Shown: positions 3,573-47,812, numbered from the stretch's first letter. The stretch is DNA of 64,000 bases from Nemertoderma westbladi (GCA_032718475.1 JAUCBJ010006713.1:1-64000), one strand, 5' to 3'. Translations and numbers: made by a program. The notes: generated from the letters alone by a model not told the origin.

Positions 3573-3578
3573 CCATCA

Positions 3579-11237: not shown

Positions 11238-11491
11238 GAACACAAACATTAAATGAGGGACAGATATTTATCAGCGCCACCAACATTAATGTGGGACAAA
11301 CATTAATCAGGGGGACTAACATTAATGTGGGACATAAACATTGATGTGGGACACAAACATTAATGAGGGACACAAACATTAATGAGGTACACTAACATTA
11401 ATGAGGGACACAAACATTAATGAGGTACACTAACATTAATGAGGGACACAAACATTAATGACGTACACAAACATTAATGAGGGACACAAAC
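11238..11491. repeat. 21-bp minisatellite (ACAAACATTAATGAGGGACAC-type)
   Basis: About 12 tandem units; reverse complement of the array at 21328-21975. Confidence 0.9.
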
Positions 11492-25195: not shown

Positions 25196-25214
25196 CGGTA
25201 CTATGCACCCTACT

Positions 25215-27478
25215 TGTAAGGGTCCAGTAGTATACCGCTTACCAGATCCTAGTAACGATGTATCTTACTATGAGACTCTAGTAATGTATACGGGCTTGTA
25301 CAGTATCTGGCAACAAATCCCAGTCCAGGATATCCAAACAAACAGATATAGTACACAAACGACTACTGGCGAGGAACAGAGCCTTGTATCTATTCTATGT
25401 ACGTGAGCGGGTCTAATGCCTACGTACTAGACAGAAGGATACCTGTCCTCTAACCGGTGAGGCAGATGTACAGTTACAGTAACAGACCAAACTCACGGGA
25501 AAACAATCCCCGCGCAGCGAATCCTAACTATCACTGACAGTCCTAAATACAGTAACTTGCCGCGGTGTGATTTATATGGGTTATATACGAACTAGGTGGT
25601 TAACAGACCTAGTGTAACAATGCTGATCATCCCTGTCGAAATCAGCCTAAAGGTCGTGCCTAAATGTAACAATAACTGATCCCCCTGTACGAAATCAGTC
25701 TAAAAGGTCAGGCCTAAATGTAACAATACCGTTGTCCAGACAAACAACAGTTTAATAACGAAAGTGAAATACTCCTTATCTTGCCGCAACTAAATCAGAT
25801 CCTAATTTTACAAATACAGACAATTTCCACCTAAAGTAATGTATAGTACGCTATAGCTAGTAGAACTTTAAGGGCAATATGTTTTAGGGCGTGTGTGTGT
25901 GGGTGTGTTACAAATAAAACAATTTCGTGTAATTCCTTTTACTAGGTTTTAGTGATTTTCTGACTAAATGATACCGTGCGCTAGCTACTAAAATAAACTA
26001 GTCGCGTTTGTAGAACTTTATACTCACGAATGACGTCAAAGCTCTCTCCTTCCTATCCACAACCCAATGGGCAACCACAGTGTTAGTAACTACACCCGTG
26101 ATCGGCACTAATACCAGATTCTGGTTGTAAGATAAGAATAGGGGTTAATCGCTACCGTACGTTAGCTGATCTGGTATACTAATTTAATTATAGAATTTTG
26201 TTGCTGCGGTAGTTAGCAGCAATACCTATCAGTACGTGGCAAGGCGCGGTAGGATATTAGTAAACCTCCCTAGGCCAAGCAGTGTGCCGGTAGCAGAAAT
26301 GCTCCTTGCCTGATCAAATAGCTAACTCCAGACAGGGGGGGGGGGGGGGGGGTACTAATGTACGTTTTACAAAGCGAACCGGTACCAAACAGTCAGTGCT
26401 ATGAATCACTAAATTATGGAACGTATGCTGTCCGTACCTAATATGTACTCGCGTACTGACGAATGGCAATAGTTCGCACCTGTAGGAAGTACAGGTTAAC
26501 CCAGGGATTCGTAGGACTTGACAAAGGGGGGGGGGGGGGGGGGTGTCTGGATATAATTATTTGATCCTAAATTTGCGGCGTCCAGTGCGGTGTCACGCTT
26601 ACCCTGATCTATAGGTCTTACGGCGGGCAAGGGCGTCGAACAAAGTCTTACCTTCTCACAAAGCGGGCGCTGCATAGCAAGTGGAGTATTTCGAAGGGGC
26701 AAAGGGGTTGCGCGGTCGATCCAATGTGGGCGCTAGCGTGTTGTGGACATCCCTTCCCTGCGTTGCTTACGGCCTAACGATCTAGGCTGCCATCTCCCTG
26801 ATGTTCGGCTGTCCCGAAGTTGGACCAAAAGAAAACATGTCAGGAATTTGCAGTATATTTACAGTTTTACAAAAGGGTTTATCAAATAAAGTTTCAACAA
26901 GAAACCGAAATAAACTAATAACAATTTAGGGCGATAACGAATAGTGTGCGTGATAACCGAAGGCAAACCGGCCTTTTATACTAGAAATTGCACATGGAAA
27001 CTAAACAGAATTTTCCACAGCTTCACAATTGAGCAATGAAGTGCTTCGTGCCCTATGATTGGCCCAGCTCATCGTTCAACGCAGTCCGGCCCTTACACTA
27101 ATCTGGGACATGGAATCCTAACAGAATTTTCCACTGCCTCACATTTGAGCAATAAGATAATTTATGCCCTATGATTGGCCTGGCTCATCATTCGCTACGC
27201 TGTACGCTTCTCATTGGCCTACCAATTAGCACCACACGAAAATAAATGGCCCCAAAATACAAATTTCCCGTCTGGGATTCGAACTCGTAACCTATGTAAT
27301 GTAACCAACGCCTTAACCATCTGACCACTACGCCACGAGAGTACCTAAAGGTTTTATGTGTACAAATATGAATAGGCATATTACATTACTGTAACTCAAT
27401 CAAAATACGTCGGATTTTCGAAAGTTTTTACGTTAAAGTTAAACTACAAATGCTACCTTATAGTGAAATAATTCATCA
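25215..27478 (-). repeat. BEL-2 3' LTR
   Basis: tgtaagggtcc...aattcatca, direct repeat of 38997-41253. Confidence 0.95.
27265..27342 (-). ncRNA. tRNA-derived Pol III cassette inside 3' LTR
   Basis: Minus strand: A box TGGCGTAGTGG, B box GTTCGAATCC, TCTCGT/ACGGGA acceptor-like pairing, T4 run downstream; anticodon arm not canonical. Confidence 0.55.
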
Positions 27479-28229
27479 CCGCTCCATGAAAACAGTAAGT
27501 AAGGCTGTTTTCACCAATCGAAATATAAAATATTTACAAACTATTTCTAAATTTACTGGTAGGGCCTAAAATATAAAATATAATCACTATCTAATTATTG
27601 CATACTTAATATTGCAGATACGGCGTAAATACAATCGATCGTACATACAAATACAAATTTACGAATTAACTTTAGTGCCTAAAATACAAAAAAAAGGCTT
27701 TCGGTTATCAAGATAAACAAATTAAACAAATCAGAACAAATAAATCAAACAAATCAAACAAATAAATCAAACTCTTTCGATAAATCTTTATATATTGTAA
27801 ATATACATAATAAACCTTCACCAAATTAAATCAGTTCAAATATAATATAAACATAATGCGCTAATAACTTTCAATAGTGTCCTCCTGACGATCTGAAAAG
27901 TTCGTCCTGCTGGTCTGGATATCTTCTCCTGAGCACTAATTGCTAACGGTAGGCTCGCAAGCCTTCCTTTCCATATCTCGTTCTTCCAAACCCAACGTCC
28001 GATATAAATACCCAAATATAATATCCAAATATAAAATATCCAATATAAATATCCAATATAACATCCAAATATAATATCTGAATATAATATCTGAATATAA
28101 TATCCTTTCTTCTCGCTTTCCTATTCCTTGGCCGACCGGGCTCGTCCACGTCCTCTATTGCGATTGGGTGGTGGTCGAGGTCGAACTGGGCTCGGACTTC
28201 GGCGTCGAGTTGTCGGTGGTTCCAAAACG

Positions 28230-29272: not shown

Positions 29273-32200
29273 CTATTTACTAATATTGGGTGGAGATTTG
29301 TAGTCTCCCGTCTCGTTTCTAGTCTCCTCAAGGAGTACGAGACGTTGTACAGGTCTGTCTACGGTACGTCCGTCGATAGTCCGTACAGTAACTGTCCTCA
29401 CTACACCAGATGTAGGGTGCGTGGTCAAAATGACTCCAGTCAGCCAAAACCGTCTTTTCAGATTAGCTTCAGCCAATAAAACATGGTCACCACGTCTTAA
29501 ACATCGGGTATTTAGATACCAAGAGGTTCTGGTCGAAATAGAGGGCAAATAATATTTCTGCCATATTTCCCAGAATTTATTTGCAAGTAATTGAGTGATT
29601 TTCCAAGCCTTGTTGCCGTATCCGTCACTATCAACGGGTACCGAAATGGGCAACAATGTCGTCGGCGCCTGCATAAGCAGGTGCGCTGGTGTCAAGGCAA
29701 ACTGTACGTCGTTATTGTCTGGGATCAAAGCGATCGGTCTGGTATTTAAGATTGCTTCGATTTCTATTAGTAACGTCGTCAGTTGGTCGTCTGTCAAGAT
29801 GTGTTGCGTCGGTACGACTTTAGCCATAGCTGTCTTTATTGAGCCAATCAGCCTTTCCCAAACGCCGCCTCTCCACGGACTGTCTGGAGTATTGAAAAAC
29901 CAAACAATACGGTGAGGACGTAGTTCCTCGGAAATCTGGTTTTGGTCCAATTTTCTCAAAGCTCTGGTTATCTCGTTCCGTGCACCCACAAAGTTTGTCC
30001 CTTGGTCGCAGTATATGGATTTGACCAATCCACGTCTAGCGATAAATCGCCGTAAGGCTAGGATAAAGGCATTGGTGGTCAAGTCTGTCACTCGCTCTAT
30101 ATGGACAGCTCTGCTGGCCATGCAGGTGAAGATCAATCCCCAACGTTTTACCTGTACCCTTCCGCGTTTCGCGATTATGGGTCCAAAACAGTCTATCCCT
30201 GTCTCAGTGAAAGGGGGTCTAAACGCCTGTAATCTAGCTAATGGTAGTTCACTCATTTCTTGGTGTCCTATCCTCGCGTGCACCTTCTTACAAATAATAC
30301 AGTTCCGTGTTACCGAACTCAGTGCCTTACTAGGTCTAATCAGTACAAACCTCGAGCGTAAGTGTGATAGACAGTGGTGTCTACCTACGTGTTTGAGTTG
30401 TACATGTGCGTCCAGTATCATAGCGCGCTGTAACTCATGGTGTTGCGGTATGATGATAGGATACCTAAAGTCAAGTGCAAAGTCGATGTTTTGGAGTCTG
30501 GACTTGTGACAAAGTAAGCCCCGGTAAATAATCGGACTCCAACTCAAAATCGGTGAAGACTTAATCTGTTTACCTTGTTTGATCGCTGTGAACTCTCGTG
30601 CGAAATATCGCAATTGATAATGTCTAATGATATCAACTTCACAGTGGTCAATTTCCTTTAAGGTAAGTCTTCTAGGAAAGTCGCGTTTGCCTCTGGCATA
30701 TTGTCTCAATCGTTTGAGCCATGCTAACTTGCGGCACGCGTCAGTCCATGATCTAGTTAGGTTCACTATCCTGTCAACGTAAGTGTTAGTGACGTCATCG
30801 GGTAAGGTGTAGTCGTAGTGTGGATACTTGTCTGGACTTGGTAGGCCCACGGGCCTTCCGGTAGGTTTGTCTGAGTCCCCAAGTACGTCAATCTCTACGG
30901 TCTTACCTTTGCCGTCCGCACCTAATATGTCGACTGGCAGTAATGGTTTCAACTCTACAGTGTCAGTGTGTTCCTGTGAGCTTGTAAGCTTCCTAACCTT
31001 AGTCACCACTTTACCTGTAGGTAAGTCAAGTACCTTCTTCGAGCGGAGTGTAATCCCTGTGGCCACACCTCTGTCGTCCAAAGAAGTCAAATTTGGTACG
31101 TCTCTAAAAGTCCGCTCCAATGGGTCTTCTAATGGAGTGTCTAGTAGACAGTCTGGTGAAGCGTCTGGTGAACAGTCTGGTGAGACGTCTGGTGAGACAT
31201 AGCGCGGAACATCCGGCGAAATGTCCTGTCGTTGGTCCCAAAGTCTGTCTAGCGTAACTTCTGTCAGAAAGTCTGGTTCAAAGTCTGGTGGACAGTCGGT
31301 TGAGATGTCTGGTGAACAGTCTGGTGAGACGTCCGGTAGACATTCTGTCGAGAGTTCCATCAAACAATCTGGCGAACAATCCGGAGAACAATCTGGTGTC
31401 TCTTCTGGTGAATAGTCTGGCGAGTAATCTGGTGAACAATCCGGCGAAACGTCTGGTGAAATCTCCCGCGGAACATCCGGCGAAGGATTCATACAAGCGT
31501 CTGGTCGAGTGTCTGGCGAGACGTCTGGCGTAATGTCAGGTCTGGCGTCCAGGTCATCAGATTTCGTCCGTCCTTTTTTCCTCTTGACCTTGGCGTTGGC
31601 TTTCGCTTTAGACTTGACAACCTTGTCGAGTTTTATCTCGGCACCCTCTGGTATGGTGTTGGTTGTCGCGTCGAATAACGGTGGCCATTCGTCTGATGGT
31701 CGCTGTAGGAAATCGGGTCCTCTAAACCAAAAGGATTTATTGTCCGGTTTACAAAAGTCAAGTGGTTGCATCCCCCGTGACGCGATGTCAGCTGGGTTCA
31801 GCTTCCCTGGACAGTGACGCCAATCTTGTTTGAGCGACCGGTCTAGTATTTCAGCCCGTCTGTTGGCTACGAAAGTCTTGAACTCGAATGTTTCGTTGTT
31901 TATGTACCAAAGTACCAACGTCGCATCCGTCCAATATGTGACCTTCAAGTTAGCCTCCAGCTCGCGTTGAACTAGACTGACAATATTGGTGGATATCGTC
32001 CCGGCTTGCAGCTCCCCACGAGGTACAGTCATATACTTCAATGGCATTGTTCTAGCCCTTGAAGTAACGAGAGATACATCGTAGCTGTCCGATGTCACTT
32101 GTCGTCTAAGGTATAAAGTAACCCCCAATCCATCCTTGCTAGCGTCACTAAAGCTGTGAAGCTCTAAATCGGCAGGAAAGGTGGTTTGCAAAGGAAAGTA

Positions 32201-35200
32201 TACCCTCGGTATGGTATAGTCTTGTAGGAACGTCAGTTGGGCTTCCCAGTCCCTCCATCGCTCAGCTAACTTTTCTGGGATGGGATCGTCCCATTCCAGT
32301 CCGGCTTGCCAAATGCTGCGGAGTATGATCCTAGCATGTAGGATCACTGGACTAATGAAACACAATGGGTCATACAATCGACTCATAGTCGATAAGCAAG
32401 TCCTCTTAGTGAGAGGTCTAGTCCGATCGTTGGACCTTACACGTACCCTAAAATTGTCGGTGTTAGGGTCCCAACTAAGTCCTAGTACTTTGGTCGTCGG
32501 CAGTGGTTCTAGGTCTAAGTCTAAATCACCTCCGCTACGATCCATCGGGTCAAATGAGTTCACCAGTTCGGGTTCGTTGGAAGCGAACTTCGTCAGGTGA
32601 AATCCGCCCTCAGCGAGACAATCCTGGAGTTGGTGTGCTACGGTTGTAGCGCGCTCCAAGGTGTCACAACTCTTGAGGCCGTCATCCACGTAGAAATCTC
32701 GTTCCACGGTCCGAACTACTTCTGGGTCAAATTGGTCTCGTCTGTCTAATGCTGTCTGCTTCAAGGCGTACATGGTGCAGTTGGGGCTGTCCCTGGCTCC
32801 GAATACTCTTACCTGTATTTGGTAAGTTTCTGGCGGAAGTTGTAAGTTTCCGTCCGGATACCAAAGAAACCTCAAACTGTCCCTGTCCCGCTCCAAAGCC
32901 TTAACCTGGTGAAACATGGCCTCTACGTCACAGGTGAAAGCCACTTTGCGTTGTCTAAAACGCATTAGGACTCCCATGAGGTAATTATTCATATTCGGCC
33001 CGTCCATCAGTTCGCTATTCATAGACATCCCTTGGTAAAGCGCAGCGCAGTCGTTGACTACACGCACCTTGCCAGGTTTGTCCGGGTGTCGAACAAAATG
33101 ATGTGGCAGGTAATATGTCTGGTCTGTAGTTACCTCAGGATTTAACATCCTAATGGCGTATCCCTTTTGGAGATACGTCTGAAGTTGTGCATTGTATTGC
33201 ATATGGGCCGTCTCGTCTCGCAACAATCGCTGCCTTATTGATTTGAGTCGCCTCAAAGCAAGCGGGTAATTGTTAACGAGCTTAGGTTGTCCATTGCGCC
33301 ACAACATACCAACCTCATAGTGGCCATTCGCGGTCTGGCGAATGGTATCTCTCATAATATTTAATGACCGTTTTTCCTGTTCTGACATAGCGGTCTCGTA
33401 ACTACCGGGTTCTGCTGAGTCCTGTTCCAACCATTGTATGGTCCGTTCAGTCAGCAGTCGGTCAAGCGCTGCTTGCACTGCGCCATGGTCCTCGTCCACG
33501 TCTTCGTCCGCTGCGGTGGCTAGTGTCAATGTGTCTGGTAGGCTCGCAAGCCTTCCGGTGTCACTAGTCGGCGTCGAATTGTCGTGCGGCGGTTTGACAA
33601 CCTTTTGATCTGTCGGTAGGCTCGCAAGCCTTCCAAGATCAACGACCGGTGTCGAAGCCTGGTGGGTGGGGTCAATGACCTTCGGATTTTTCGGTAGGCT
33701 CGCAAGCCTTCCAAAATCCTCGTTCATCGAGTCATCCACAGCAACAACCCTCAGGTCTTCAGTAGTCAATACAACCTGGTCTACTGCAAGTAGTTGTAAG
33801 TCAGAGGTCCGTATGGTCGTGTCCAGATCGGTTACGTCAGTATCGGTGGCGTCTGCGTTAGTGACGCAAGTCTGTCGTAGTGCCGTCCGTACAATTGGAC
33901 CACGGGAGTGTGAAGGAGAATTATCTATCGTGTTAGTCAATAAACTACACGTACTCAAAACATCGTCCTCCTGGTCACTTACCTCTAGTGAACGTATTGG
34001 TGCTCTAGTATACCAACCTATGGGAGTTCTACATGCGTAGGGGTTGCCCGCTGTAATAACAGATGGGCGTGTCTCCCATACCTGATGTAAGTTAAACTGG
34101 TCTGTCCCAATTAACATCGCAATGGAACGATAATTGACAGGACATTCCGGTATTCCAAGGTGTCGAAAATACTTACGATCTTCCGGAGATTGCTCTGGCA
34201 CAGGGCCGAGCAAGTTACTAAAGTCCTTCGTAGCTGCAAAGGTCAAATTTCTTACCGGAAGTAATGAGCGCTCCTCCTTGCTGTGTTCCGCTTTGGAAAG
34301 AAGAGTGTCTAAAGTTAGTTTTACTCTCGTCACAGGAATCGCTCTCTTACCATGCATGCTGCTTACAGTATACTGAGCAGTCTTACCTTGACTCAAGTCC
34401 GTAACTACGTCGGCTACTTGTTCGTCGACGTAACTATGCGATGACGCAGAGTCTAAGATGGCGTATATACGCTTGCTCCCTCGGGTTCCGGTAATCTTTA
34501 TAGGAATCACGCTAAACCCTTTCAATTGGTTCTGTGTGAGGAGCGTTATCGATGGCTGTTCCTCACCTGCATGCACGTAGAAAGTGTCGTCTTTCTCCTC
34601 GTCCTCGTCCGATGATCCTGACTGATCCATACAATCGGTATAAAAGGTACGGATCTCGCGCGGCGCACACTCCTTATAAAGCGCGTCGCATCTAGCCGCT
34701 TTATCGGGATGCTCTCGTCGAAAGCGTCTGGTCGGAGTATGACTGGTTGTGTGAAGCAACGCGTCATGGTTACGTCCATACAAAGAACATGTATCGTCGC
34801 TCGGGCAATCCTTCCGGACGTGTCCTGGCTTCATACATCTCCAACAGGAATCTAGAGATCGGATTTGGAGTCTCCTCTCCTCGATCCCTAACTCTTTAAA
34901 GGCGCGACATCCACGTAGTTTATGTCCGCTTTGGTTTCTGCCGTTCCGCTCGCAGTATGAGCATCCCACAAAGTCCGCCGGCAACTGTTGTCGTGGCTGC
35001 GTGGTGCCGATAGGCGTCAGAACTTTAGAAGTCTCAGTAGGGGTGGCGTAAGTAACGGCTTTCGCGTTCGTCGGAAACGGTTTAGTCCGATTCGGCGCAG
35101 AAACAGTTATCCCTTCCGCCGCGATATGGTGATCGGTATAGTTCGATCGAGTCTCGATCACGGCCTCCCGTGAAATAAGTTGATAGACATCGGTGAGTTT

Positions 35201-38041
35201 TAATAACCCTCCGGCCTCTTCGCGCTGGTACTCGATGCGTCGCCATTCTCGTCGTAGTCGATGATGAAGTCGACCGATTATTCGAATGAGAACCGTCGGT
35301 GCGTTAGCGTACTCGAGTTGTCCAATGGACCGTAAAGTCCCTATAGCGTTCTTTATTTCGTCCGCGAGTCGTAAAAGGTCAATCGGTCTCGAAATGTTGC
35401 CTCCTCTGCAGAGGTCTTCAATGATGGATTTAGCCATGGCGACGTTACCGCCGTAAATCGAATACAAACGGTCGTACGCCAACTCGAAGGCATCGGGAAC
35501 ACCAATAAAGGTTTCCGCTAATCGTTTCGGCTCACCAGACAGGACTTGGAGCAAGTAATTAAACTTCTCCGTCGAGGTGAAAGCACACTTAGCGATCTGG
35601 GACTCTACGTAGTCTACCAGTGTGCGCCAGTGTTTCGCGTTGCCAGAGAACTTCGGCGGTTGCTGTGCCGGTAATCCGTGTCTAGCCGCGAATTTCGCAA
35701 TCTCGCTAACCAAATCCAACTGTCCGCGTCCCTGTTCGGCGGCGTCGTCCAGTCGTTCCCTTCCACGCGTTGTTCGTCGGTAGGAATTATTAACGGGATC
35801 TTCTTCTCGATGTGTTGGAGTCCGTCTAGTCTCCTGTTCTCTCCTCGGTGGTCGATGTTGTCTAGGTTGTTCCAACTCCACGCTGGTTCGTGATCGATCC
35901 GACGGTTGCGCTTCGAGTCGTTCTTCGAGTTGAGCTATTCTGTCCGTCATCTCGGTGAACTGTTTAGCGCTGATCGTTTCTGCTGGTTTCAACGTGGGTT
36001 TCTGTTGGGGTGTCTCTCGAGGTGGATTGTCGATGTATGGATTCGTCGACTTCTCCTCTCGTTTGTAATCCGCTGCCGCTCCAGTACGGAATATTTCCCG
36101 TTCCGTCGACTCCGAGTCGCTAGATGAGTCGCTGTCGTCCGGATAAGGTGGTTGGCGGGTTCGCGTCCGGCGTATTATTCTTGGTCGAGTTCGTTGTGGT
36201 CTGGGATCTACGGCTCTCCGTTGTTCGGTAGGCTCGCAAGCCTTCCACGAAGTCGTAGGTCTCGTTAAACATTGGGTGAGAGGTCTAGTAAAAACATCGG
36301 AGTTAAGCTCTACTGTAGGTTTATAAATGACTGGGTTCGCGCAGCACGTCACAGGTTTAACTTGTAATGGTTTACTCACCTGTTTAATGGTCATAAACGC
36401 AGGTTCCTCTCTTCCTACAAGTAGACTACGACTTACTGTAGGTGGACTAGTTATGTTACCTGCTAAAATTGGCGATGAAGTCGCCCTAGGTTGCGGTATT
36501 TCCGTCACAACAAACCTGTTGCCTTGCGTCGAACGCACAGGCGTTATTTCCTTAGGTTTCGTAACAAAGACCGGTTTTATCGGAGTCGTGGGTTTGAGCA
36601 TAGGAATAACTTGGGGAAAACGTTTACAGTAATCCTCGACGAACTCCTCTCCTCGATCTATCGCTCCCACGCTTCCTTCCTCGATCCGCTTCTGTATTCC
36701 GCGATATCGAGCTTCCATACGATCCAGGGCAGACAAGTCGTGTCCAGTTCGCGATCTCATAGATCTATCTCTCGCGTCGAGTTCGAGGTCCGCTTGCGCG
36801 TTCGCTGTCTCTCGCGATCTACGATTCAATTCGAACTGTAGTTGCATCTCCCTTTCGCGTCGATCTGCATCCTGTTGTTGTGCCGCTAACTCCGCTTCCT
36901 GTATAGCTAATCGAGCGTTTATTTGCCGCGCCTCCAACTTGGCCCGAGCGTCGGATGCTGCCTTTTTCCGTGCTAACTCGTCAGCTGCCGCCTGTCGTGC
37001 TAACTCGTCGGCTGCCGCTTCTCGCGCTAAGTCCTCCTCCAGTCTCCGCATCTCTGATGCTTCGAACTCAGCCTGCGCTTGAAGTTTCGCAAGTTTCGCT
37101 ACGTCTTCTCTACGCTGTCTTTCTCCTTCCATCGCAATCTGCGCCAATTGTCGTTGAGTTTCTTCCTCGGCGACTTGTTGTCGGCGTGCAACCTCCTGTT
37201 GTTGTTGAGTAATTCCAGACGCTGTTCTACTAACGTCGCCAACGTTGCCAACGTCGCTCCGTACGCTAACGAACGATCTATCCAGTGGTGGATGTTGGTA
37301 GGCTCGCGAGCCTTCCGTAGTGAGAACTTCCGTCGTCCCTCGCGGTTCGACTTCCGGTTCGTCGATCGGTACGCCGCATCTACGAAGAAAATTGGTCAGC
37401 GTTTCCAACCTTCCGTCCAGGCAGTAGAGTTCTTCTTCCTCTTCGGGTTGTAACAACGCGTCCGAAACTGACTCACCTAGCAGTTGGTCGAACTGCTCCT
37501 GTTGAGCCAATCTTATCACCGACTTAAACTGGATAAGGCTTTCTCTCGCACTTACCAATTTATCTACTATCTTTACCTGAGTAAAGTTGTCACCACGCAA
37601 CTCTGCAAGTTCGTACAAACCTTTTAGTTTATCTACGGAGGCATGTACCCTACTTTCTATTCTTACCTGTAAGGTGTAGAACTCGTATCTCGACATCGGG
37701 GCGGTTAACTCGCGTAAAACGCGAAAACCTTCTCCGAGGTTCCGAGTAATCTGGGCCATGTGTCCTCCTATACTTCTAATAACGTTCTGCTGGCTTCCAG
37801 TCGAACTTACCATGTCCGGTTCCCGTGATCTAGTCTGCGGGACGGTAAGGAAATCTTCGATTCTGCCGTCGCCACGCGTTGCGGCTTCCGGTATTTCCGT
37901 TCGGGGTACCGGCGACGCAAGCGGTGTGACATCGGTGGAATCTCGGGTTCTCCTTCTCGGTTCGTCTACTGTCGATCTGTCCGGGTCGCACGAGTCATAG
38001 TCGGTAGGTGGGTATCTCGTCGAATGGGGTGTGTCACTCAT
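29273..38041 (-). CDS. BEL/Pao Gag-PR-RT-RH-IN polyprotein (2922 aa)
   Basis: Gag LPAQQPPKFSG; knuckles CSYC..H..C, CWRCMKPGHVRKDC, CSLYGRNHDALLH; PR LDSAS; RT YLPHH, YVDD; RH FSDAS, WTDA, NPADIASRG; IN HHCC, GIDCFGP, CDQGTNF, GVWERLI. Confidence 0.97.
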   Translation of the reverse strand: MSDTPHSTRYPPTDYDSCDPDRSTVDEPRRRTRDSTDVTPLASPVPRTEIPEAATRGDGRIEDFLTVPQTRSREPDMVSSTGSQQNVIRSIGGHMAQITRNLGEGFRVLRELTAPMSRYEFYTLQVRIESRVHASVDKLKGLYELAELRGDNFTQVKIVDKLVSARESLIQFKSVIRLAQQEQFDQLLGESVSDALLQPEEEEELYCLDGRLETLTNFLRRCGVPIDEPEVEPRGTTEVLTTEGSRAYQHPPLDRSFVSVRSDVGNVGDVSRTASGITQQQQEVARRQQVAEEETQRQLAQIAMEGERQRREDVAKLAKLQAQAEFEASEMRRLEEDLAREAAADELARQAAADELARKKAASDARAKLEARQINARLAIQEAELAAQQQDADRREREMQLQFELNRRSRETANAQADLELDARDRSMRSRTGHDLSALDRMEARYRGIQKRIEEGSVGAIDRGEEFVEDYCKRFPQVIPMLKPTTPIKPVFVTKPKEITPVRSTQGNRFVVTEIPQPRATSSPILAGNITSPPTVSRSLLVGREEPAFMTIKQVSKPLQVKPVTCCANPVIYKPTVELNSDVFTRPLTQCLTRPTTSWKACEPTEQRRAVDPRPQRTRPRIIRRTRTRQPPYPDDSDSSSDSESTEREIFRTGAAADYKREEKSTNPYIDNPPRETPQQKPTLKPAETISAKQFTEMTDRIAQLEERLEAQPSDRSRTSVELEQPRQHRPPRREQETRRTPTHREEDPVNNSYRRTTRGRERLDDAAEQGRGQLDLVSEIAKFAARHGLPAQQPPKFSGNAKHWRTLVDYVESQIAKCAFTSTEKFNYLLQVLSGEPKRLAETFIGVPDAFELAYDRLYSIYGGNVAMAKSIIEDLCRGGNISRPIDLLRLADEIKNAIGTLRSIGQLEYANAPTVLIRIIGRLHHRLRREWRRIEYQREEAGGLLKLTDVYQLISREAVIETRSNYTDHHIAAEGITVSAPNRTKPFPTNAKAVTYATPTETSKVLTPIGTTQPRQQLPADFVGCSYCERNGRNQSGHKLRGCRAFKELGIEERRLQIRSLDSCWRCMKPGHVRKDCPSDDTCSLYGRNHDALLHTTSHTPTRRFRREHPDKAARCDALYKECAPREIRTFYTDCMDQSGSSDEDEEKDDTFYVHAGEEQPSITLLTQNQLKGFSVIPIKITGTRGSKRIYAILDSASSHSYVDEQVADVVTDLSQGKTAQYTVSSMHGKRAIPVTRVKLTLDTLLSKAEHSKEERSLLPVRNLTFAATKDFSNLLGPVPEQSPEDRKYFRHLGIPECPVNYRSIAMLIGTDQFNLHQVWETRPSVITAGNPYACRTPIGWYTRAPIRSLEVSDQEDDVLSTCSLLTNTIDNSPSHSRGPIVRTALRQTCVTNADATDTDVTDLDTTIRTSDLQLLAVDQVVLTTEDLRVVAVDDSMNEDFGRLASLPKNPKVIDPTHQASTPVVDLGRLASLPTDQKVVKPPHDNSTPTSDTGRLASLPDTLTLATAADEDVDEDHGAVQAALDRLLTERTIQWLEQDSAEPGSYETAMSEQEKRSLNIMRDTIRQTANGHYEVGMLWRNGQPKLVNNYPLALRRLKSIRQRLLRDETAHMQYNAQLQTYLQKGYAIRMLNPEVTTDQTYYLPHHFVRHPDKPGKVRVVNDCAALYQGMSMNSELMDGPNMNNYLMGVLMRFRQRKVAFTCDVEAMFHQVKALERDRDSLRFLWYPDGNLQLPPETYQIQVRVFGARDSPNCTMYALKQTALDRRDQFDPEVVRTVERDFYVDDGLKSCDTLERATTVAHQLQDCLAEGGFHLTKFASNEPELVNSFDPMDRSGGDLDLDLEPLPTTKVLGLSWDPNTDNFRVRVRSNDRTRPLTKRTCLSTMSRLYDPLCFISPVILHARIILRSIWQAGLEWDDPIPEKLAERWRDWEAQLTFLQDYTIPRVYFPLQTTFPADLELHSFSDASKDGLGVTLYLRRQVTSDSYDVSLVTSRARTMPLKYMTVPRGELQAGTISTNIVSLVQRELEANLKVTYWTDATLVLWYINNETFEFKTFVANRRAEILDRSLKQDWRHCPGKLNPADIASRGMQPLDFCKPDNKSFWFRGPDFLQRPSDEWPPLFDATTNTIPEGAEIKLDKVVKSKAKANAKVKRKKGRTKSDDLDARPDITPDVSPDTRPDACMNPSPDVPREISPDVSPDCSPDYSPDYSPEETPDCSPDCSPDCLMELSTECLPDVSPDCSPDISTDCPPDFEPDFLTEVTLDRLWDQRQDISPDVPRYVSPDVSPDCSPDASPDCLLDTPLEDPLERTFRDVPNLTSLDDRGVATGITLRSKKVLDLPTGKVVTKVRKLTSSQEHTDTVELKPLLPVDILGADGKGKTVEIDVLGDSDKPTGRPVGLPSPDKYPHYDYTLPDDVTNTYVDRIVNLTRSWTDACRKLAWLKRLRQYARGKRDFPRRLTLKEIDHCEVDIIRHYQLRYFAREFTAIKQGKQIKSSPILSWSPIIYRGLLCHKSRLQNIDFALDFRYPIIIPQHHELQRAMILDAHVQLKHVGRHHCLSHLRSRFVLIRPSKALSSVTRNCIICKKVHARIGHQEMSELPLARLQAFRPPFTETGIDCFGPIIAKRGRVQVKRWGLIFTCMASRAVHIERVTDLTTNAFILALRRFIARRGLVKSIYCDQGTNFVGARNEITRALRKLDQNQISEELRPHRIVWFFNTPDSPWRGGVWERLIGSIKTAMAKVVPTQHILTDDQLTTLLIEIEAILNTRPIALIPDNNDVQFALTPAHLLMQAPTTLLPISVPVDSDGYGNKAWKITQLLANKFWEIWQKYYLPSISTRTSWYLNTRCLRRGDHVLLAEANLKRRFWLTGVILTTHPTSGVVRTVTVRTIDGRTVDRPVQRLVLLEETRNETGDYKSPPNISK

Positions 38042-40748
38042 GTCTTATTATATACGTCAAGTACGGGTAATAAAATGTCAAGTGTCTGAATGTTGAGGTG
38101 TCAAACTTACCTTGGTATATATAGCTATATACCCTAACCGGTACAAATAAATCAACAAGTCAGAATGTCGAAATGTCAAAATGTCGAAATGTACAAATGT
38201 CAAACTTACCTTGATATATATATATATCATATATATACCCTAACCGGTACAAATAAACTAACAAAGTATATAATAAAATAAGTAGTAATCTAGCCTACCG
38301 GCTAAATTTGTACGAATAAGTGAGATAACGGTATACATTAACAAAATGTAGATCAACAAGTATAAACAATAGGCCAAACAGCAACGTCTAACGGGAAAAT
38401 ATGTACCAACAACACTACTAATAGACAGTGAAACCCACAAATTTTGAGTACTACTGTGCTTTCTTAAGTTTGAACGACGCGAGTCGTAAAACTTACGTTC
38501 CTTTGATCTTCCAGTCGTACAAATTCCCAAATACAAACCGGACGTGGGTCTTTCCGTTTTTCGGCGGCGCGGACGAATTTATTGTCTCCCAAACTTTGCG
38601 AAAAGCGGTCTAATCCTCGAAGCGGTCCAGAAATGAGTCCTTGAGTCCTGAAAAGGTCGAAGGTGAGAGTTTTACTTCTACGCTTACGAAAAATCTTCCT
38701 AGGTACCGTTACAAATTGGTCTTTAAACCCTATGTACCTTTTCAAGTACCGAAAAGTAACACCGCACACACACGGCGTAAAACAAAGTGCTACAAACTAA
38801 CTGTTAGCTAGTCAAATATTAAATACGAAAGTACTAGCTACCCTAAAAGCCTACTGAAGCAGGGGACGTTCTAAATTACTAAATTTACTAACCTTAAATT
38901 TTAAATATCTCCTACTTTCAATAGCTAGCAATTCTAAACTATACTATACGCTACGGCGGAAATACTATATACTAATTTATATAAAATACTTCCTACTGTA
39001 AGGGTCCAGTAGTATACCGCTTACCAGATCCTAGTAACGATGTATCTTACTATGAGACTCTAGTAATGTATACGGGCTTGTACAGTATCTGACAACAAAT
39101 CCCAGTCCAGGATATCCAAACAAACAGATATAGTACACAAACGACTACTGGCGAGGAACAGAGCCTTGTATCTATTCTATGTACGTGAGCGGGTCTAATG
39201 CCTACGTACTAGACAGAAGGATACCTGTCCTCTAACCGGTGAGGCAGATGTACAGTTACAGTAACAGACCAAACTCACGGGAAAACAATCCCCGCGCAGC
39301 GAATCCTAACTATCACTGACAGTCCTAAATACAGTAACTTGCCGCGGTGTGATTTATATGGGTTATATACGAACTAGGTGGTTAACAGACCTAGTGTAAC
39401 AATGCTGATCATCCCTGTCGAAATCAGCCTAAAGGTCGTGCCTAAATGTAACAATAACTGATCCCCCTGTACGAAATCAGTCTAAAAGGTCAGGCCTAAA
39501 TGTAACAATACCGTTGTCCAGACAAACAACAGTTTAATAACGAAAGTGAAATACTCCTTATCTTGCCGCAACTAAATCAGATCCTAATTTTACAAATACA
39601 GACAATTTCCACCTAAAGTAATGTATAGTACGCTATAGCTAGTAGAACTTTAAGGGCAATATGTTTTAGGGCGTGTGTGTGTGGGTGTGTTACAAATAAA
39701 ACAATTTTGTGTAATTCCTTTTACTAGGTTTTAGTGATTTTCTGACTAAATGATACCGTGCGCTAGCTACTAAAATAAACTAGTCGCGTTTGTAGAACTT
39801 TATACTCACGAATGACGTCAAAGCTCTCTCCTTCCTATCCACAACCCAATGGGCAACCACAGTGTTAGTAACTACACCCGTGATCGGCACTAATACCAGA
39901 TTCTGGTTGTAAGATAAGAATAGGGGTTAATCGCTACCGTACGTTAGCTGATCTGGTATACTAATTTAATTCTAGAACTTTGTTGCTGCGGTAGTTAGCA
40001 GCAATACCTATCAGTACGTGGCAAGGCGCGGTAGGATATTAGTAAACCTCCCTAGGCCAAGCAGTGTGCCGGTAGCAGAAATGCTCCTTGCCTGATCAAA
40101 TAGCTAACTCCAGACAGGGGGGGGGGGGGGGGGTACTAATGTACGTTCTACAAAGCGAACCGGTACCAAACAGTCAGTGCTATGAATCACTAAATTATGG
40201 AACGTATGCTGTCCGTACCTAATATGTACTCGCGTACTGACGAATGGCAATAGTTCGCACCTGTAGGAAGTACAGGTTAACCCAGGGATTCGTAGGACTT
40301 GACAAAGGGGGGGGGGGGTGTCTGGATATAATTATTTGATCCTAAATTTGCGGCGTCCAGTGCGGTGTCACGCTTACCCTGATCTATAGGTCTTACGGCG
40401 GGCAAGGGCGTCGAACAAAGTCGTACCTTCTCACAAAGCGGGCGCTGCATAGCAAGTGGAGTATTTCGAAGGGGCAAAGGGGGTGCGCGGTCGATCCAAT
40501 GTGGGCGCTAGCGTGTTCTGGACATCCCTTCCCTGCGTTGCTTACGGCCTAACGATCTAGGCTGCCATCTCCCTGATGTTCGGCTGTCCCGAAGTTGGAC
40601 CAAAAGAAAACATGTCAGGAATTTGCAGTATATTTACAGTTTTACAAAAGGGTTTATCAAATAAAGTTTCAACAAGAAACCGAAATAAACTAATAACAAT
40701 TTAGGGCGATAACGAATAGTGTGCGTGATAACCGAAGGCAAACCGGCC

Positions 40749-41000
40749 TTTTATACTAGAAATTGCACATGGAAACTAAACAGAATTTTCCACAGCTTCA
40801 CAATTGAGCAATGAAGTGCTTCGTGCCCTATGATTGGCCCAGCTCATCGTTCAACGCAGTCCGGCCCTTACACTAATCTGGGACATGGAATCCTAACAGA
40901 ATTTTCCACTGCCTCACATTTGAGCAATAAGATAATTTATGCCCTATGATTGGCCTGGCTCATCATTCGCTACGCTGTACGCTTCTCATTGGCCTACCAA
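40749..41000 (-). promoter_or_regulatory. LTR Pol II promoter: TATAAAA (40755-40749) preceded by duplicated CCAAT modules
   Basis: Two ~70-bp modules (AACAGAATTTTCCAC...CCTATGATTGGCC) ~116 bp apart plus a further CCAAT; the same arrangement is in the 3' LTR. Confidence 0.6.
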
Positions 41001-41040
41001 TTAGCACCACACGAAAATAAATGGCCCCAAAATACAAATT

Positions 41041-41117
41041 TCCCGACTGGGATTCGAACTCGTAACCTATGTAATGTAACCAACGCCTTAACCATCTGAC
41101 CACTACGCCACGAGAGT
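41041..41117 (-). ncRNA. tRNA-derived Pol III cassette inside 5' LTR
   Basis: Same A box/B box as 27265-27342. Confidence 0.55.
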
Positions 41118-42733
41118 ACCTAAAGGTTTTATGTGTACAAATATGAATAGGCATATTACATTACTGTAACTCAATCAAAATACGTCGGATTTACGAAAGT
41201 TTTTACGTTAAAGTTAAACTACAAATGCTACCTTATAGTGAAATAATTCATCACTACTACTTAGTGCTATGTACTATCTACTACTATTACTTTCTACTAT
41301 CTTACTACTTATTTATTATTTGCTTGTTATTTATTTATATTTTTTATTTTATGTGTGGGAAGGGCGTCTCGCCCTCATTCCCACCCCCCCCAGTCCAACA
41401 TATTACATATTGGATGACTCAATAACCTAAGGGTGATTCTTCCAGCAGGCAATTATCCCACTGCCCCACTATAGGTCCTCCTAATCTTCGCCCCACTCTT
41501 CTTCTCAATTCCAACTCTTTTGGAATTGACCTTCCCTTCTCCTTCACCCTTAAGTCGGGTCTTTCAGTCATGTTACTAATCTCCTCGTTGTCGTCCCCTG
41601 GCGGAAAAATGCCACCCTTCATCTTGTCGTCATTTGGCGGTAGAATGCCGCCCCTCATGTCATCCTTGCTGGTACATGCCACCTCTGCTGGCCTCCCTTA
41701 ATATGTGCGCGCTGGCATTAAAGCCCCCGATGACCCCCGGTCATCCTTCGGTACACGTAATGGGCAATGGCTTATCATTTAATGCCCCTTCGCACTCTGC
41801 CACCCCCTTATGCGTGTACAACATGCCCTCTCCCACTTTCCTGCCTCCTTTGTCACGTTTCATCATGGGCTTCTCTGCCCCTGGTCTAATCTTCCCACAT
41901 CCTCTCCCTTTCCACCTTGTCTTCTTACTCGACCTCCTCCTCATCGGTATGCCTCTCAACTGGACCGGTGCTTGTTCCGGACATCTCTCTGGACACCTCG
42001 CCGTCCACTCTTCGCCATCCCCATACCGATACTCCCCATTCTCCTCTGCCCTCGGCATCGTCTCCCCAAACACTACCCTTGGTGCCGTTCCTGGCTGCTC
42101 GCCCAGCCTGATCGTGCCTCCCGCGAAATCCATCGCCGGCTCCTCGTGCACCCAGGCCCGCTTGCCGGGTTTATCCCAGAATGCGCTCGCCCCGCTGGCC
42201 GTCACCACTCTCCCGCCCACCCAGTCCGTATCTGAGTGGCCGATCCTCTCAATGGGTGGCATCTCCCCGAACTCATCGTCATCCTCCTCCCTCGCTAGGA
42301 GTGGATCCTGACCCGGTAGCCCGGTAGATCCACTGTGCCCCTCTCCGCCTCGGTTTCCACCCGTAACCTTCCACCCCTCCTGCTCCCTTGGTGTCTTCCT
42401 TGCAAAGTCGCCCTCAGAGCCACCTGGTATGGGCATCATTTGCAATCCCGATGTCGACTGTTTCGGTGATCCCTCCGTCCATCCCAGTTCCTCCCCCAGA
42501 AACTCGCCCGAGCTCCCTGATCCCCACCTTAGCTCATCCAAGTCCTGGGCTTCGAACCCATACTCCTTGTTTTCTTCCTCGGCCTGCTTCTCGTATGGGT
42601 CCTCCCCATCGCCTGTTTCTGGTTTCTCCTCTGCTCCCTCGTCCTCCACTTCTCTCATTGTACCTGCGAACATGCACCCTGAGGATTCCGACACGTTGAA
42701 CGGAATTCTAGACTTGATTGGGCCGCTGAGTGT

Positions 42734-45700
42734 CTATCCAAATGGCGTGGAAATCGCCATTGGGCCTCTCTCTCCATCTTCGTCGAATAGGCATGAAAAC
42801 CTCCTGTGGGCTGTCGGGCAGTCCATTCCGACTATGAGAGATACTTTCGGGACGTCCAGTTTGGGCACGGAGAAATTGATATTGTCCAGGTAGTGGTATT
42901 GTTCGACCTTGCTCTTCGTGGGTCGCCTGGCATTAATATTAATCGATTCTATTATTTGAATGGGATCGATGGTCGCCCCATAATCCCTGTCTGACGCTAC
43001 CGCTGATATTTTACAACGCCCCGTTCTCATCCTAAAGACTTCGTCTTTATTCGAGATAGTGGTTACCGCCATCTTACTTGGCCTCTTTTGTAACCCTATC
43101 TTTTCGGCCACCCAATCCTCCATTAGCGTGAACGCTGACTCCACTATCGATCAACATTAATGTTGTAACTGATTAGCCCGTCCTCTCCTGTTATTCTCAC
43201 TGGTACTAATTCGAGTAGTACCATTCTCTTTCTCTTTGCTCCCATCGTGCTCATAGCCATGGTTTGGCCTCCAGTCTCATCGTATCCTATCGGTGTTTCT
43301 CTACACTCTCCGAATCTGTGTCCTTCCACCACGCAGCGATAACATCCATTTGTATCCGCGTAGGCTACCCGATCTTGTTTAGGCAACGCTTGCCAATGCT
43401 TACAACTCATGGTCTTATGGGTTCCATCTCTATGCAATTGACATTCGTATCCTGGATTGTAGCATTCCCTGTATAGCCCTTCACGTATAGCGCGTAGATT
43501 CATATCTACCGGTTTAGTGTTTTGGTTATTTGGACTTGGCCTACTGGGTATGTTGGTATTATATTTGTTTGTGTTGTTATTTTGTTTCTGTCCCTGCCAC
43601 GGTGTGGCCCTACTCCCAACTAGGGTTCAACAGAAGGCACTTTATGGGGCCGAACCGAACCGAACCGAAGCAGGGCCAACTTCGGGCCGAACCGAACCGA
43701 ATCCGAACCGAAGTTCAGAAAGTTAGCAAGTTATGGTCATAAATTCGTATTTACGTCACTATACTGGCTGACTGGCAGTGGCAGACTGGTACCTATTTGG
43801 TCTGCTGACTTAGCGAGAAAGCTATGATTAATTAAAAAAATAAATACTACAAAATAAAATGGCAATATTTACATTACTATACATTACTAACCTAAACTAC
43901 TGTATACTTACTGTATGCATGCACTTACTGTATGCACCACATTTTCACCCGTAGTAAGCCGTACAGTAGTGACATCAAATTTAGAAAACCTCACTAAAAG
44001 TACAGGTACAGTCGGACAGTGGTGCAGACAATGGTGCAGACACTGGTGCAGACACTGGTGCAGACAGTGGTGCAGACAGTGGTGCAGACCGTGGTGCAGA
44101 CAGTGGTGCAGACAGTAGTGCAGACACTGGTGCAGACACCTGGTGAAAATACTGAAATACTAGAGTACCACAAAACACAATACCACCAGGCACTATTATA
44201 TTATATTTTATCATAGACTTTATTATCTACAAATATGCGAGTAACTACTGAAAGGTTCTACATGAAGTAGGGAGGACGTATGTAGTACAAGTCGGGGTGC
44301 GTGCTGGTGAATGTGCCCTGATTACAAATAATTAAAAGAGGTGTGTACGAAAGTAATTAATCGGTATTCCCGTTTTCATATAAACAATAATGTCTATAAA
44401 TTGTAAGCAGCAATGTCTCCAAGGAATGAGTTTTAAGCGACAGTGTGTGATTGTTTTTACATGACCTACTTTATACAGAGTATGTTTAATTTGTTTACCT
44501 TTACTGGAGCCACTGCTTATTACTGTATAATAAAACGAGCTCATTAAGTTATTGTCTCGTGCTGGGCAGCTGGGGATATACATTCACTAACTCCAGTAAG
44601 GTCTCAGGAATTCTTAGCCTGCGAGTATTCTTAGCCTGCGAGTATTCTTGGGTATTCTTAGCCCGCAAAACAATAACGTTTATTGTTTTGGTTCCCCCAA
44701 TACTCCTCTGAAACTGTGAAACCTGCTCCTTTACTAACCTGCTCGCCCCTTTACTGTCTGTACCAGTCTGCCAGTGTCTGCACCACTGTCTGCAGCAGTC
44801 AGCAGTGTCTGCACCAGGTGTCTGCACCGCTGTCTGCTCCACTGTCTGCACCAGTGTCTGCACCACTGTCTGCACCTGGTGTCTGCACCACTGTCTGCAC
44901 CACTGTCTGCACCAGTGTCTGCACCATACTGTCTGCACCAGTGTCTGCACCACTGTCTGCACCACTGTCTGCACCAGTGTGTGCACCACTGTCTGCACCA
45001 TAGGTGTCTGCATCACTGTCTGCACCATTGTCTGCACCACTGTCTGCTCTGCACCAGTGTCTGCTTAACGTTTACACTCCAAAATTAATTAGTACAACGA
45101 TGGACAGATTGATTAGTCTTACTGTCTTCTGGCAGTCTGGTCTTAGCTCAATCAGTCAATGTAATACTTGGAATATTTAGCAAAGTTTGCTCCGGGCTTC
45201 TGCAGTATCAATTGCAGAAGCCGAACCGAACCGAAATTGCCAAACTTCGGCCCGAACCGAACCGAAGCCGAAGCTTCTGTTGAGCCCTACTCCCAACTAA
45301 CTGTGGACTAGCAGTCCCCTGTGTGGCCGTATGTGGTAGCGACTGTCTCACTCTCGGGAATGCACCTGCCGGATTATGTTCGGGTTTAGGCCTGTTGTAT
45401 TCAGCTTTCGGCGCCTTCCCCAAACTATCCTCGCTGTAGACTGGGTCTGTAATCAACTCCGCCTCATAGTTAAGGAACTTTGACATCTCTTCTAGGCCTG
45501 GCTCCGCACCCTTCTTCTCCCGGGTGGAGAAGGCGATCTTTCTCCATTTGTTTCTTAGCCAGATGGGTAGTGCCTGCGCTATTGTGGTGTATGTTATGTG
45601 TATGTTATTCGATGCGTTGAGTTTGTAGGGCGCATCCAGGGTCTTCAGCACAATCAGCGCCTTTTCGACTTTATTCGCAAAAGTCTTGATGCTGACAGGG

Positions 45701-46140
45701 TTATCCTGTAGTCCACCTGATGGTATTCCCCTCAAGGTTTGCCGTATGATCTTGGCAGGGTGTCCGAATTCCCTGTCTAGGGCCCACCATGCAGTCGTGA
45801 ATCCACCCTCGATACCTTGATACTCCCTTACGATGTCGCACGCTGGGCCCCCTGTGTAAACTTGTAAATATTTTAGGCACTCCGCCTGTGTCAGGTTCTT
45901 TGTCAATATTTCGTTACTGTACATGCGTCGGAATTGCAGATATTCTTCCGGTCTGCTTCCATCGAATTTGAACGGCTCCACTGGTGGCAGCTCGAACCTG
46001 GTCTTAAGCGCATCGATGAGTGTTGCCATTCCCATCGCCTGTACTTCTAGTGGGCTTGATGGATGCTGTACAGACTCCCCTGCTGCTGTGTGCAGTTCGC
46101 CCGTCGGGCCTGTCGACCTCCTCTGCGTCGGATATATCAT
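42734..46140 (-). pseudogene. BEL-3 gag-protease, split by hAT MITE
   Basis: Removing 43621-45289 plus one TSD copy joins ORF 45208-46140 in frame to ORF 43144-43503 (...PQLVGS-RATPWQG...KPVDMNLRAI). Confidence 0.8.
43621..45289. mobile_element. Non-autonomous hAT element with inverted internal 12-bp arrays
   Basis: TIRs TAGGGTTCAACAGAAG / CTTCTGTTGAGCCCTA, 8-bp TSD CTCCCAAC, (CCGAA)n subterminal repeats, (GGTGCAGACAct)n at 44016-44140 inverted versus 44770-45062. Confidence 0.9.
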
Positions 46141-47812
46141 TGGGGGTAACGGTCCCCTCCATATCTCTGTATCACACGATCTATTCTGGTCCGAGGGGTT
46201 TGGGGTTTTTGCTCCTGGTTGAGTATATTGCTGATATTGTAATGGGAGAAAGTCCCCCCACCGGTGTTATATTTGGTATTGGGGTTGATGTTACCATGTT
46301 AGGGCCCATACACCTATCGGCAATAACTCCCCCCCTCTCCTGGGTATATGTTATGTCCTTGCATGTTATAGTCATACTGGTGTGCAGGTACCGGTACAGG
46401 CCTATCCACCTCTTGCCTACCTACCAGTATGTATGCCGCGACTTCCGGATCTAATCCCGTTGTCCGCGCTATCCTATCGCATACACTATCTCTTCCAGCA
46501 TGGCCTATAGTCTGATAGTATGTGCAGTAAGGCCTACAGTATGTCCTGCAGTCTGCCTGTGTCCTTCCGGACCGAAGTTTAATCTTCTCGAATATTCCAA
46601 GAAGTCCTTCCCGCGACTACCGTACTCTCGATCGGCAGCTATGTCCCGTCGGGAAGTTTCTCTTCGATCCCCTCTCCTGTTCTCGTCCTCGCGCCGGTAC
46701 ATCCTGTACCCTTCTCCTGGTGTGTGGTATATCTCACCAGGCTGCGTCTCTCCGGGGCGACGGCAACTCGTCTCCCTCTCTCCTCCGTAGTTGACGGCCG
46801 CCCTCCGCTTGGTCTACCGTATCGTCCCTCGTCATCGAATCCGGTGTGGCAGGCCAATACCGTCGTGTCACGGCCTCACGGATCGTTTGGTTGGTGTCGT
46901 CCGGGGTCCGCGGCGGCGTTCTCTCTCCCTCTGATAATCGGGGCTCCCTTTCGCTCATCTTCCTGTCTTTGCAGTCACAGTTTGTTGGCAGTTGGTCAGT
47001 TTATGACTGTGACGGGATCCTAAGATCCCGACCGGGTTAGATTCGTACGCGTCACCATTCTGCTGGCAGTTATGCTAAGTCGTTTTGGCCGAAGGCCGTT
47101 GGGGAAAACAATAGAGTTTCTGTTTCTCAATATTGATAGTCCAAACGATAATAGCACAATCGGTAAATCAGTAATGACACAGATATAATAGCAGAAAATA
47201 CACAGATTGATTGCTGTTGTTAGTGGCGGTGACGGTCATAAACTATGACCGGTCTGCAACTGAGTAACTAATGAACTGACCGGTAAATCAGTAGTGCAGA
47301 ATAATATATGATTAACACACACGGATTTTGATTTCACCTCTTACTGTACTTGGCCCTCTGTACCCAATGGATGCTTTCCTATCTCTAATCATGTGCTTCC
47401 CTCCCCGCTATTGGCTAATATACTAATTGTCACTTTGGCACTCCCTGTGAGTGTTTCCCCCTGCTGCTAGCCTCTACTAGCTGTATTCCTTCCGAGGTGG
47501 TTTGACCTCTCACCTCTCTCTGTGGCTTCAGGGCTTGTGCCCCCCCCCCCCCCCCCCCCCCCCAATGTTGGTTATGAGGCGAGATTAATATTGGTAATCT
47601 CGTATCCCCAACTTATTGGTGAAATGCCACTGGTCCCATTTTCTGGTGGGTAATGAAGTGGAATTGAATCCGCTTACATATTGATCAAAGCTTGATTGGC
47701 AGATTGCATTTCTCAATATTATATTTTATACAGCATTGATAGATCAGTAGATACCAGTCTGCTGGTAAGCCTAAAACAGTACAATATATTAAAATAATCG
47801 ATTTGATTTTTG

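Follow-up and report, generated by a model that had tools for sequence, protein, structure and literature searches.

Self-priming of the Tf1 type uses a primer of 11 nt. In the Tf1/sushi group (Tf1, Tf2 and Tj1), no tRNA takes part; the primer-binding site (PBS) that follows the 5' LTR is complementary to the element's own R region, and cleavage by RT/RNase H frees the primer (available portions of PMC5341516, PMC4600332 and bioRxiv 2022.12.06.519325). The Tf1 primer is also described as being copied into the PBS of the cDNA (PMC11042837, in part). Outside this group, self-priming has been predicted from LTR-PBS complementarity in the plant elements Tcn1 (gypsy) and TAR/Houba/Osr-1 (copia) (excerpts of PMC6317226), and in the fungal GalEa copia elements the PBS is replaced by a non-tRNA hairpin feature, the "Conserved Hairpin Site" (excerpts of PMC5445492). 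BEL/Pao elements (ICTV family Belpaoviridae) are characterized by an 18-nt PBS for tRNA-Arg or tRNA-Gly, LTRs of 0.2-1.2 kb and genomes of 4.2-10 kb (PMC8742986). The PBS of BEL/Pao is not treated in the accessible parts of four surveys of these elements (PMC3118150, PMC554778, PMC6238403, PMC8220671), and a splice-built primer is absent from those of PMC3601003, PMC13524379, PMC4558846, PMC6934838 and PMC5445492. No report of BEL/Pao self-priming or of a junction-spanning primer was found in the literature searched, which consisted partly of excerpts and left subscription papers, Repbase and GyDB outside its scope, so that an earlier mention is possible. Here we describe a BEL/Pao element that, judging from its sequence and those of its relatives, is very probably primed from one of two sites within its own LTR.

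A BEL/Pao element and its candidate primer-binding site

The element is an LTR retrotransposon of 16,039 bp at 41253-25215 in a 64-kb window (the whole stretch of DNA that was analysed); it and its features lie on the minus strand. Its 5' LTR (38997-41253, 2257 nt, TG...CA) and 3' LTR (25215-27478, 2264 nt, starting with TG and ending with CA) are 99.6% identical, with 10 substitutions and 7 gap columns in poly-C between them, and the element is flanked by a 5-bp target-site duplication, AGTAG (upstream copy 41254-41258, downstream copy 25210-25214). A short purine-rich tract before the 3' LTR (27479-27485) is the likely polypurine tract (PPT). One open frame (29273-38044, 2923 aa) encodes gag-pol with DUF1759, CCHC, protease, RT (YVDD), Peptidase_A17, integrase (zinc finger) and DUF5641; its unusual length is due to a long Gag region and to an in-frame tandem repeat of SPD-rich units between RNase H and integrase (31116-31484). 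The predicted TATA box lies at 40749-40755, with CCAAT boxes upstream, and would place the start of transcription near 40727.

The Gag-PR-RT-RH-IN order with Pao-type PF05380, DUF1759 and DUF5641 is that of BEL/Pao, as are the TG...CA termini, the target-site duplication and the PPT. The LTR (2257 nt) and the total length (16,039 bp) lie outside the ICTV size range, and the 18-nt PBS for a tRNA 3' end is lacking, there being no TGG. Because the protein evidence is firm, we read the missing tRNA PBS as a gap in the description of the BEL/Pao family. The element is young and intact, and hence some primer probably functioned recently. The family also appears abundant and varied, since thousands of contigs cover the LTR (5528 from run X1 and 2478 from run X2).

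Directly past the terminal CA of the 5' LTR, the minus strand reads GTAGGAAGTA (38996-38987) and not TGG, as an earlier sequence-only reading of this DNA had reported. We annotate a candidate non-tRNA PBS of 10-11 nt adjoining this CA (38986-38996), which starts with GT as in 24/25 listed relatives. An exact complement of GTAGGAAGTA, which the same reading had placed in a hairpin of the LTR, is indeed located there (40263-40272); as also claimed, its 3' end falls on the first base past the LTR, and it lies 483 nt downstream of the TATA box at 40755 (~480 nt had been given). The chance of such a match, put at 0.002 in that reading, was about right, as recomputation gave ~0.003. The 10-mer recurs in the 3' LTR (26482-26491), and no further copies of the complement were found in the window. 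A complement of at least 10 nt arose in 16/5000 Markov copies of the LTR, for 10/2998 random GT-starting 30-mers set against the LTR part downstream of the TATA box, and at 3/932 leader start positions, one of which is the PBS itself. Long-range complements of 9-11 nt within the LTR are estimated to occur in about the number expected by chance. No PBS substitutions were seen among the 40 variant rows listed (251 more exist).

The LTR boundary on which this register depends is favoured by one contig of X4, tentatively an RNA run, that begins precisely at 38997. Moving the LTR end by 5-6 nt, which the PBS-like start of the 3' flank (A-GTAGG) had suggested, was ruled out, as TG...CA and the 5-bp duplication fit the called end. 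This flank shares five letters with the PBS, shifted by one position, which may reflect target preference or chance. Tf1 insertion at PBS-like sites is described as possible without integrase (PMC11042837, in part), whereas a target-site duplication is present here. GTAG-rich satellite surrounds the element (24700-25214 and 41254-41330). An unexplained go-back joint with 30 extra letters, resembling the flanking satellite and the PBS, spans the LTR end and PBS (38968-39003) in runs X1 and X2.

No tRNA genes were detected in the 64-kb window by ARAGORN, and an Rfam search over 38000-41400 returned a single chance match (E 0.67) and no known ribozyme. A tRNA-like stretch with A-box and B-box motifs is located in U3 (41048-41113), with a copy in the 3' LTR; neither ARAGORN nor Rfam called it, and it is possibly a captured SINE head.

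Complements of the primer-binding site in related elements

An alignment search yielded 90 related loci (80 metagenome loci, the best of 514 confirmed, and 10/10 genome-contig loci), the best segments of which are 33-48% identical to this RT region. The same type of search found no related loci in viral contigs, scans for related loci with a single protein gave no match, and ARAGORN returned 0 records on the related loci. The 17-nt hairpin pattern had 18 viral matches with only short, weak LTR similarity, which were taken as chance.

The sequence-only reading had held that a TGG PBS in other copies would speak against its proposal; among the 14 loci in which the 5' LTR end is fixed by both LTR copies, none (0/14) has TGG within the first 8 nt past the LTR. 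In these loci, short contiguous complements of the PBS start right after a pyrimidine tract and AG, and the complement resumes across a GTAAG-type donor. Across the 90 loci, the PBS of 43 is a 10-15 nt complement of the exon-exon junction of a predicted LTR-internal intron (67 to 536 nt), most commonly over 11 nt (24/43 loci). These loci fall into 24 families, defined at 80% RT identity, a number that does not count independent origins, given the kinship of the families and the probable derivation of many contigs from a small number of hosts. No call was made for 41/90 loci, many of which stop short of the LTR, and matches far from the LTR end, or lacking CA and a GT/AT start, were put aside as background. 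A contiguous 13-mer in L085, where the LTR end is undefined, was not counted, and L057, which fits only as a composite of its own two LTRs, stands outside the 43.

When candidate introns were ranked blind to the PBS, the matching junction (10-15 nt) came top in 6/14 loci and within the top three in 10/14, with splice scores that had been set by hand after the LTRs were seen and were therefore blind to the PBS, not to the idea. The ranking missed L032 and L057, where the scored LTR has a base change, L055, where a nearby donor outscored the matching one, and L075, where the LTR concerned is intron-less. Controls reached 10 nt in 0/4400 windows and in 1/132 cross-family cells. The 25 representatives carry 21 distinct PBS 10-mers, each matching its own junction (by selection), and off-diagonal matches (20/600) occur only among five related families that have a common PBS. 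Between L086 and L087, changes in exon 1 are matched by changes in the PBS. Covariation of the PBS with an LTR-internal complement, which the sequence-only reading had proposed to test in related families, is thus present in 24 families, nearly all of which have an intron dividing the complement, a point not noticed in that reading.

Two LTRs are precisely intron-less, the 5' one in L063 and the 3' one in L075, with the intron present in the other copy or in L076. Such precise loss is expected from reverse transcription of a spliced LTR and provides DNA evidence that the intron is real, although the L063 and L075 contigs may be mosaics of copies. Overall, 24/27 families fit junctions; contiguous, intron-less complements occur in L050/L051, where they span 11 nt and include two matching changes, and in L030, where 12 nt pair at a distance of 6 nt from the CA. 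The related loci L065, L066 and L068 have no CA within 5 nt of the site. The predicted primer end lies 4-10 nt downstream of the acceptor in every listed relative. Together, these sequences indicate that the primer of this lineage is most likely built by splicing. As separate observations, a GCGT(T)CGAA-like or PBS-like motif occurs in U5, 40-65 nt before the LTR end, in eight loci (L009, L016, L026, L027, L040, L043, L057 and L062), and L081-L090 are BEL/Pao elements in contigs filed as bacterial MAGs, most likely through contamination with animal DNA.

Top protein matches over RT-RH are 39-46% identical to the focal element, except for two arthropod proteins at 30-32%, and the named best matches are mostly from marine invertebrates, from which we would guess membership of the Sinbad/Sailor branch. 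A FastTree phylogeny of 69 RT pieces (unnamed and host-annotated relatives only; 5 loci were dropped for short matches) placed the focal element with a second BEL element in the window (support 1.00), then with an unnamed protein (0.95). Its grouping with the junction-primed L007, L062 and L027 had a support of only 0.58. All marine sequences formed one group, apart from two arthropod sequences (0.91), and the first split of the tree has junction families on either side.

The second BEL element (11474 to about 21000) is broken, lacks a second LTR in the window and shares 57% amino acid identity with the focal element. It has a similarly long 5' region and a motif after the TATA box in common with the focal element, and is flanked by inverted 19-nt arrays (11240-11500 and 21300-21970). 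Its candidate PBS (18429-18439) is an 11-nt complement of the predicted junction of 20662 to 20005, with the donor 100 nt past the TATA box; the LTR end is not independently fixed. This is a post hoc fit, obtained by trying each CA in turn and allowing only donors ~80-160 nt past the TATA box, which gave one match (18439), and 1/150 nulls reached it. A third, decayed BEL-like element (41741-47560, DUF1759 at 45208-46266), in which the focal element appears to be nested, may have a tRNA-type TGG site near 47057, its LTR end not being fixed. The window also holds a LINE with endonuclease and RT domains (3573-6614, plus strand).

Two candidate primers and competing explanations

In the focal element, the best explanation, which we consider about evenly balanced on the sequence evidence, is that the primer for minus-strand synthesis spans a splice junction that joins an exon end at 40627 (or 40638) to 40297. 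The predicted exon-1 end (40627-40638) is complementary to positions 7-17 of the leader (5 exact pairs, or 11 with one bulge and one G.U), and the exon-2 part, TCCTAC (40292-40297), is the complement of PBS positions 1-6. Two candidate donors lie within 40621-40637, 118-129 nt past the TATA box (92-140 nt in 5/9 relatives with a TATA-like box), and the predicted acceptor is a poly-C/pyrimidine tract followed by AAG (40298-40318). Splicing from the GC site (GCAAAT at 40626) would give 11 exact pairs, or 17 with one bulge and one G.U, and a duplex of -16.9 kcal/mol; the GT donor (GTAAAT at 40637) would give 9 exact pairs and -13.8 kcal/mol. Of the random GT 30-mers, 1/2998 reached a match of 11 when the 6 GT/GC sites lying ~80-160 nt past the TATA box were allowed, and 3/2998 reached 9 with the single scored GT donor. 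The exon-1 side ranks best of 440 positions, and its score was equalled by 13/3000 shuffled leaders over the 6 sites and by 89/500 over all 440 positions.

The splice signals of this junction are poorer than in any representative. The donor +5 G is absent at both sites but present in 25/25 representatives (the search favoured such donors and admitted no others than GT), and the acceptor is AAG rather than the YAG of true acceptors in the representatives. Thus, where relatives have a strong GT-AG intron and 10-15 exact pairs, this element has 11 (GC donor) or 9 (GT donor) and an AAG acceptor. Stronger donors (40545, 40396 and 40377) and acceptors (40445 and 40261) lie in or beside the intron and would yield RNAs without the primer. 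Family copies include some with CAG acceptors and one variant without AG. About a quarter of X1 depth at 38983 (3515.6 of 13346.5) lacks one T of the leader run, so that pairing past 11 nt is not strictly kept. In one low-depth X1 row (depth 53.6), the leader extends the exact GC-junction match to 15 nt (by eye, plus strand), a row that a deletion between AT-rich repeats could also have produced. No intron-less joint over 40150-40800 was seen in X1-X4 contigs, which drop rare variants and so give no evidence either way. A junction primer also leaves an equally well-registered 10-mer as a coincidence or decoy, the two candidate primer ends being 29 nt apart.

This 10-mer is central to the leading alternative, to which we give real but distinctly less than even weight: the unspliced RNA would prime itself through the contiguous complement at 40272-40263 once the hairpin opens and RNase H cuts before AG, the 5' piece of ~465 nt serving as the primer. 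The split complement would then be a decaying relic of an ancestral junction primer, or a looped-out helper helix, and the hairpin would shield the site by masking the 40261 acceptor. Such priming offers 10 exact pairs plus an 11th G.U pair in exact register, has no need of the weak splice sites and accounts for the degenerate donor and acceptor; the intron-less contiguous primers of L050/L051 and L030 are precedents within the lineage. Its duplex with the PBS is predicted at -15.1 kcal/mol, but the hairpin (40259-40277, 7 pairs, -7.5 kcal/mol), which buries both the 10-mer and the AG/G of the 40261 acceptor, must open first. Pair probabilities in this hairpin are 0.91-1.0 in a 116-nt local fold, leaving the 10-mer locked with a pair probability near 1, and the duplex has probability 0 in the fold of the 1798-nt unspliced RNA (long folds are unreliable). 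Both primer sites are contained in a long stem-loop domain with facing poly-C tracts on its two arms (40094-40341, z -3.27), a domain that may serve as a binding site for poly(C) proteins or represent an old insertion.

The 10-mer also coincides with positions -12 to -3 of what looks like a canonical 3' splice site (CAG/G at 40261), of which it forms the pyrimidine tract. This site would close a predicted 117-nt intron (40261-40377, GG/GTAAGC ... CAG/G), the second-ranked pick, with a strong donor at 40377, the excision of which would remove the 10-mer and, with it, both candidate primer ends. The only common family variant within the 10-mer, at 40270 (3-4% of depth in X1-X3), retains a G.U pair with the PBS, which agrees with contiguous priming but says little, since C-to-T always yields G.U. 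In a diverged subfamily of X1-X3, stem and acceptor are retained but the loop is different, which counts against the 10-mer, and the exon-2 six-mer is changed as well; as the PBS of this subfamily is unseen, it decides nothing between the two primer sites. The fit of 24/27 families and of the sister element to junctions weighs further against contiguous priming, and from sequence the hairpin 10-mer is slightly less likely than the junction to be the primer. Hence, the earlier proposal of self-priming in a BEL element is supported by the relatives (0/14 with TGG and PBS covariation in 24 families), while the hairpin 10-mer that it put forward is only one of two candidate primers; neither the split complement nor the overlap with a 3' splice site had been noted in it.

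It is improbable that a host tRNA half or other small RNA primes the element and that both LTR complements arose by chance or as by-products. Ty1/copia lineages are known to use half-tRNA primers (PMC6317226, in part), and BEL/Pao is described as tRNA-primed by ICTV (PMC8742986), but a few conserved tRNAs cannot supply 21 PBS 10-mers in 25 relatives, each matched to its own LTR. The 10-mer and its complement are also absent from seven supplementary files of PMC13524379, the legend of which lists a table of tRNA PBS 12-mers that covers 3' ends only and not halves. More improbable still is that the excised 40377-40261 intron primes through its natural 3'-OH end, which would need no endonuclease cut and carries the 10-mer 2 nt before a canonical-looking acceptor, since its terminal AG would be placed on the LTR's CA, leaving one mismatch, and would be copied as CT where both LTRs end in CA, so that trimming is needed, and since the primer end in the listed relatives is never upstream of the acceptor.

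A proposed priming route and its relation to known systems

For a junction-spanning primer, the following route can be proposed. The transcript would begin near 40727, and removal of a cap-proximal intron of ~330 nt (40626, or 40637, to 40298) would join ...ATACT to TCCTAC. The leader, by analogy with Tf1, would fold back onto the PBS, with which the joint would pair over 11 nt, or up to 17 with one bulge. A Tf1-like RNase H cut after the final AC (40292) would create the 3'-OH of a primer of ~105 nt, and strong-stop DNA (38997-40291) would transfer to the 3' R. ATTAAA signals lie downstream of both primer sites, so that an R region for strand transfer would be available. An intron in R would separate the primer halves in DNA and in the 3' LTR, so that only the spliced 5' copy could prime; intron and exon 1 would be regained from the 3' LTR copy, which would have to be unspliced, and the intron would therefore be inherited. 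The hairpin would conceal the competing acceptor and the contiguous complement.

The cap aids splicing of the first intron. Cap-assisted splicing of this kind could produce the asymmetry between a spliced 5' copy and an unspliced 3' copy. Copying of the primer into the PBS end of the cDNA, as in Tf1, would keep PBS and junction matched and explain their fast covariation. The two acceptors (40298 and 40261) are 37 nt apart. We tentatively propose, with confidence a little short of even, that a broad marine BEL/Pao lineage swapped its tRNA primer for one written by the spliceosome, and that the focal element is a derived form with two routes, in which a hairpin-gated choice of acceptor would switch the RNA between template and mRNA. 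If true, self-priming across a splice junction would add another means of initiating reverse transcription, would tie the replication of an animal retrotransposon to host splicing and would account for many BEL/Pao copies without a recognizable PBS. It would also pose a puzzle, as an intron that is spliced out of the 5' LTR must be retained in the 3' LTR.

Compared with Belpaoviridae (BEL/Pao, Semotivirus), the element agrees in the set and order of its domains, its single ORF, its TG...CA LTRs and its 5-bp target-site duplication; it differs in having no tRNA PBS and in its 2.26-kb LTR and 16,039-bp genome, both of which exceed the family profile. Tcn1 and TAR/Houba/Osr-1, like this element, lie outside Tf1, but they are not BEL/Pao, and no intron or junction is mentioned for them in the excerpts of PMC6317226. 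The GalEa hairpin lies after the LTR and has no LTR complement, according to the portions of PMC5445492 available, whereas the complement here lies inside the LTR.

Conserved flanking "pretzel" helices of the Tf1 type were not found within 30 nt (mean z of -0.24, 0.42 and 0.08 for three 30-nt flank pairings in 23 relatives, with a z of -2.6 for the focal U5-leader pairing). Tf1/sushi elements are Ty3/gypsy chromoviruses, and this element, having BEL/Pao domains, is not a member. Tf1/sushi elements use the uninterrupted 5' end of their transcript as the primer, whereas the 3' end of the primer here would lie ~100 or ~465 nt from the probable start, and in most relatives the primer would span a splice junction. 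As in Tf1/sushi, however, the candidate PBS complements the element's own LTR RNA and is adjacent to the CA. Hence, on present sequence comparisons, the feature most likely acts like Tf1 self-priming in a BEL/Pao lineage, outside Tf1/sushi.
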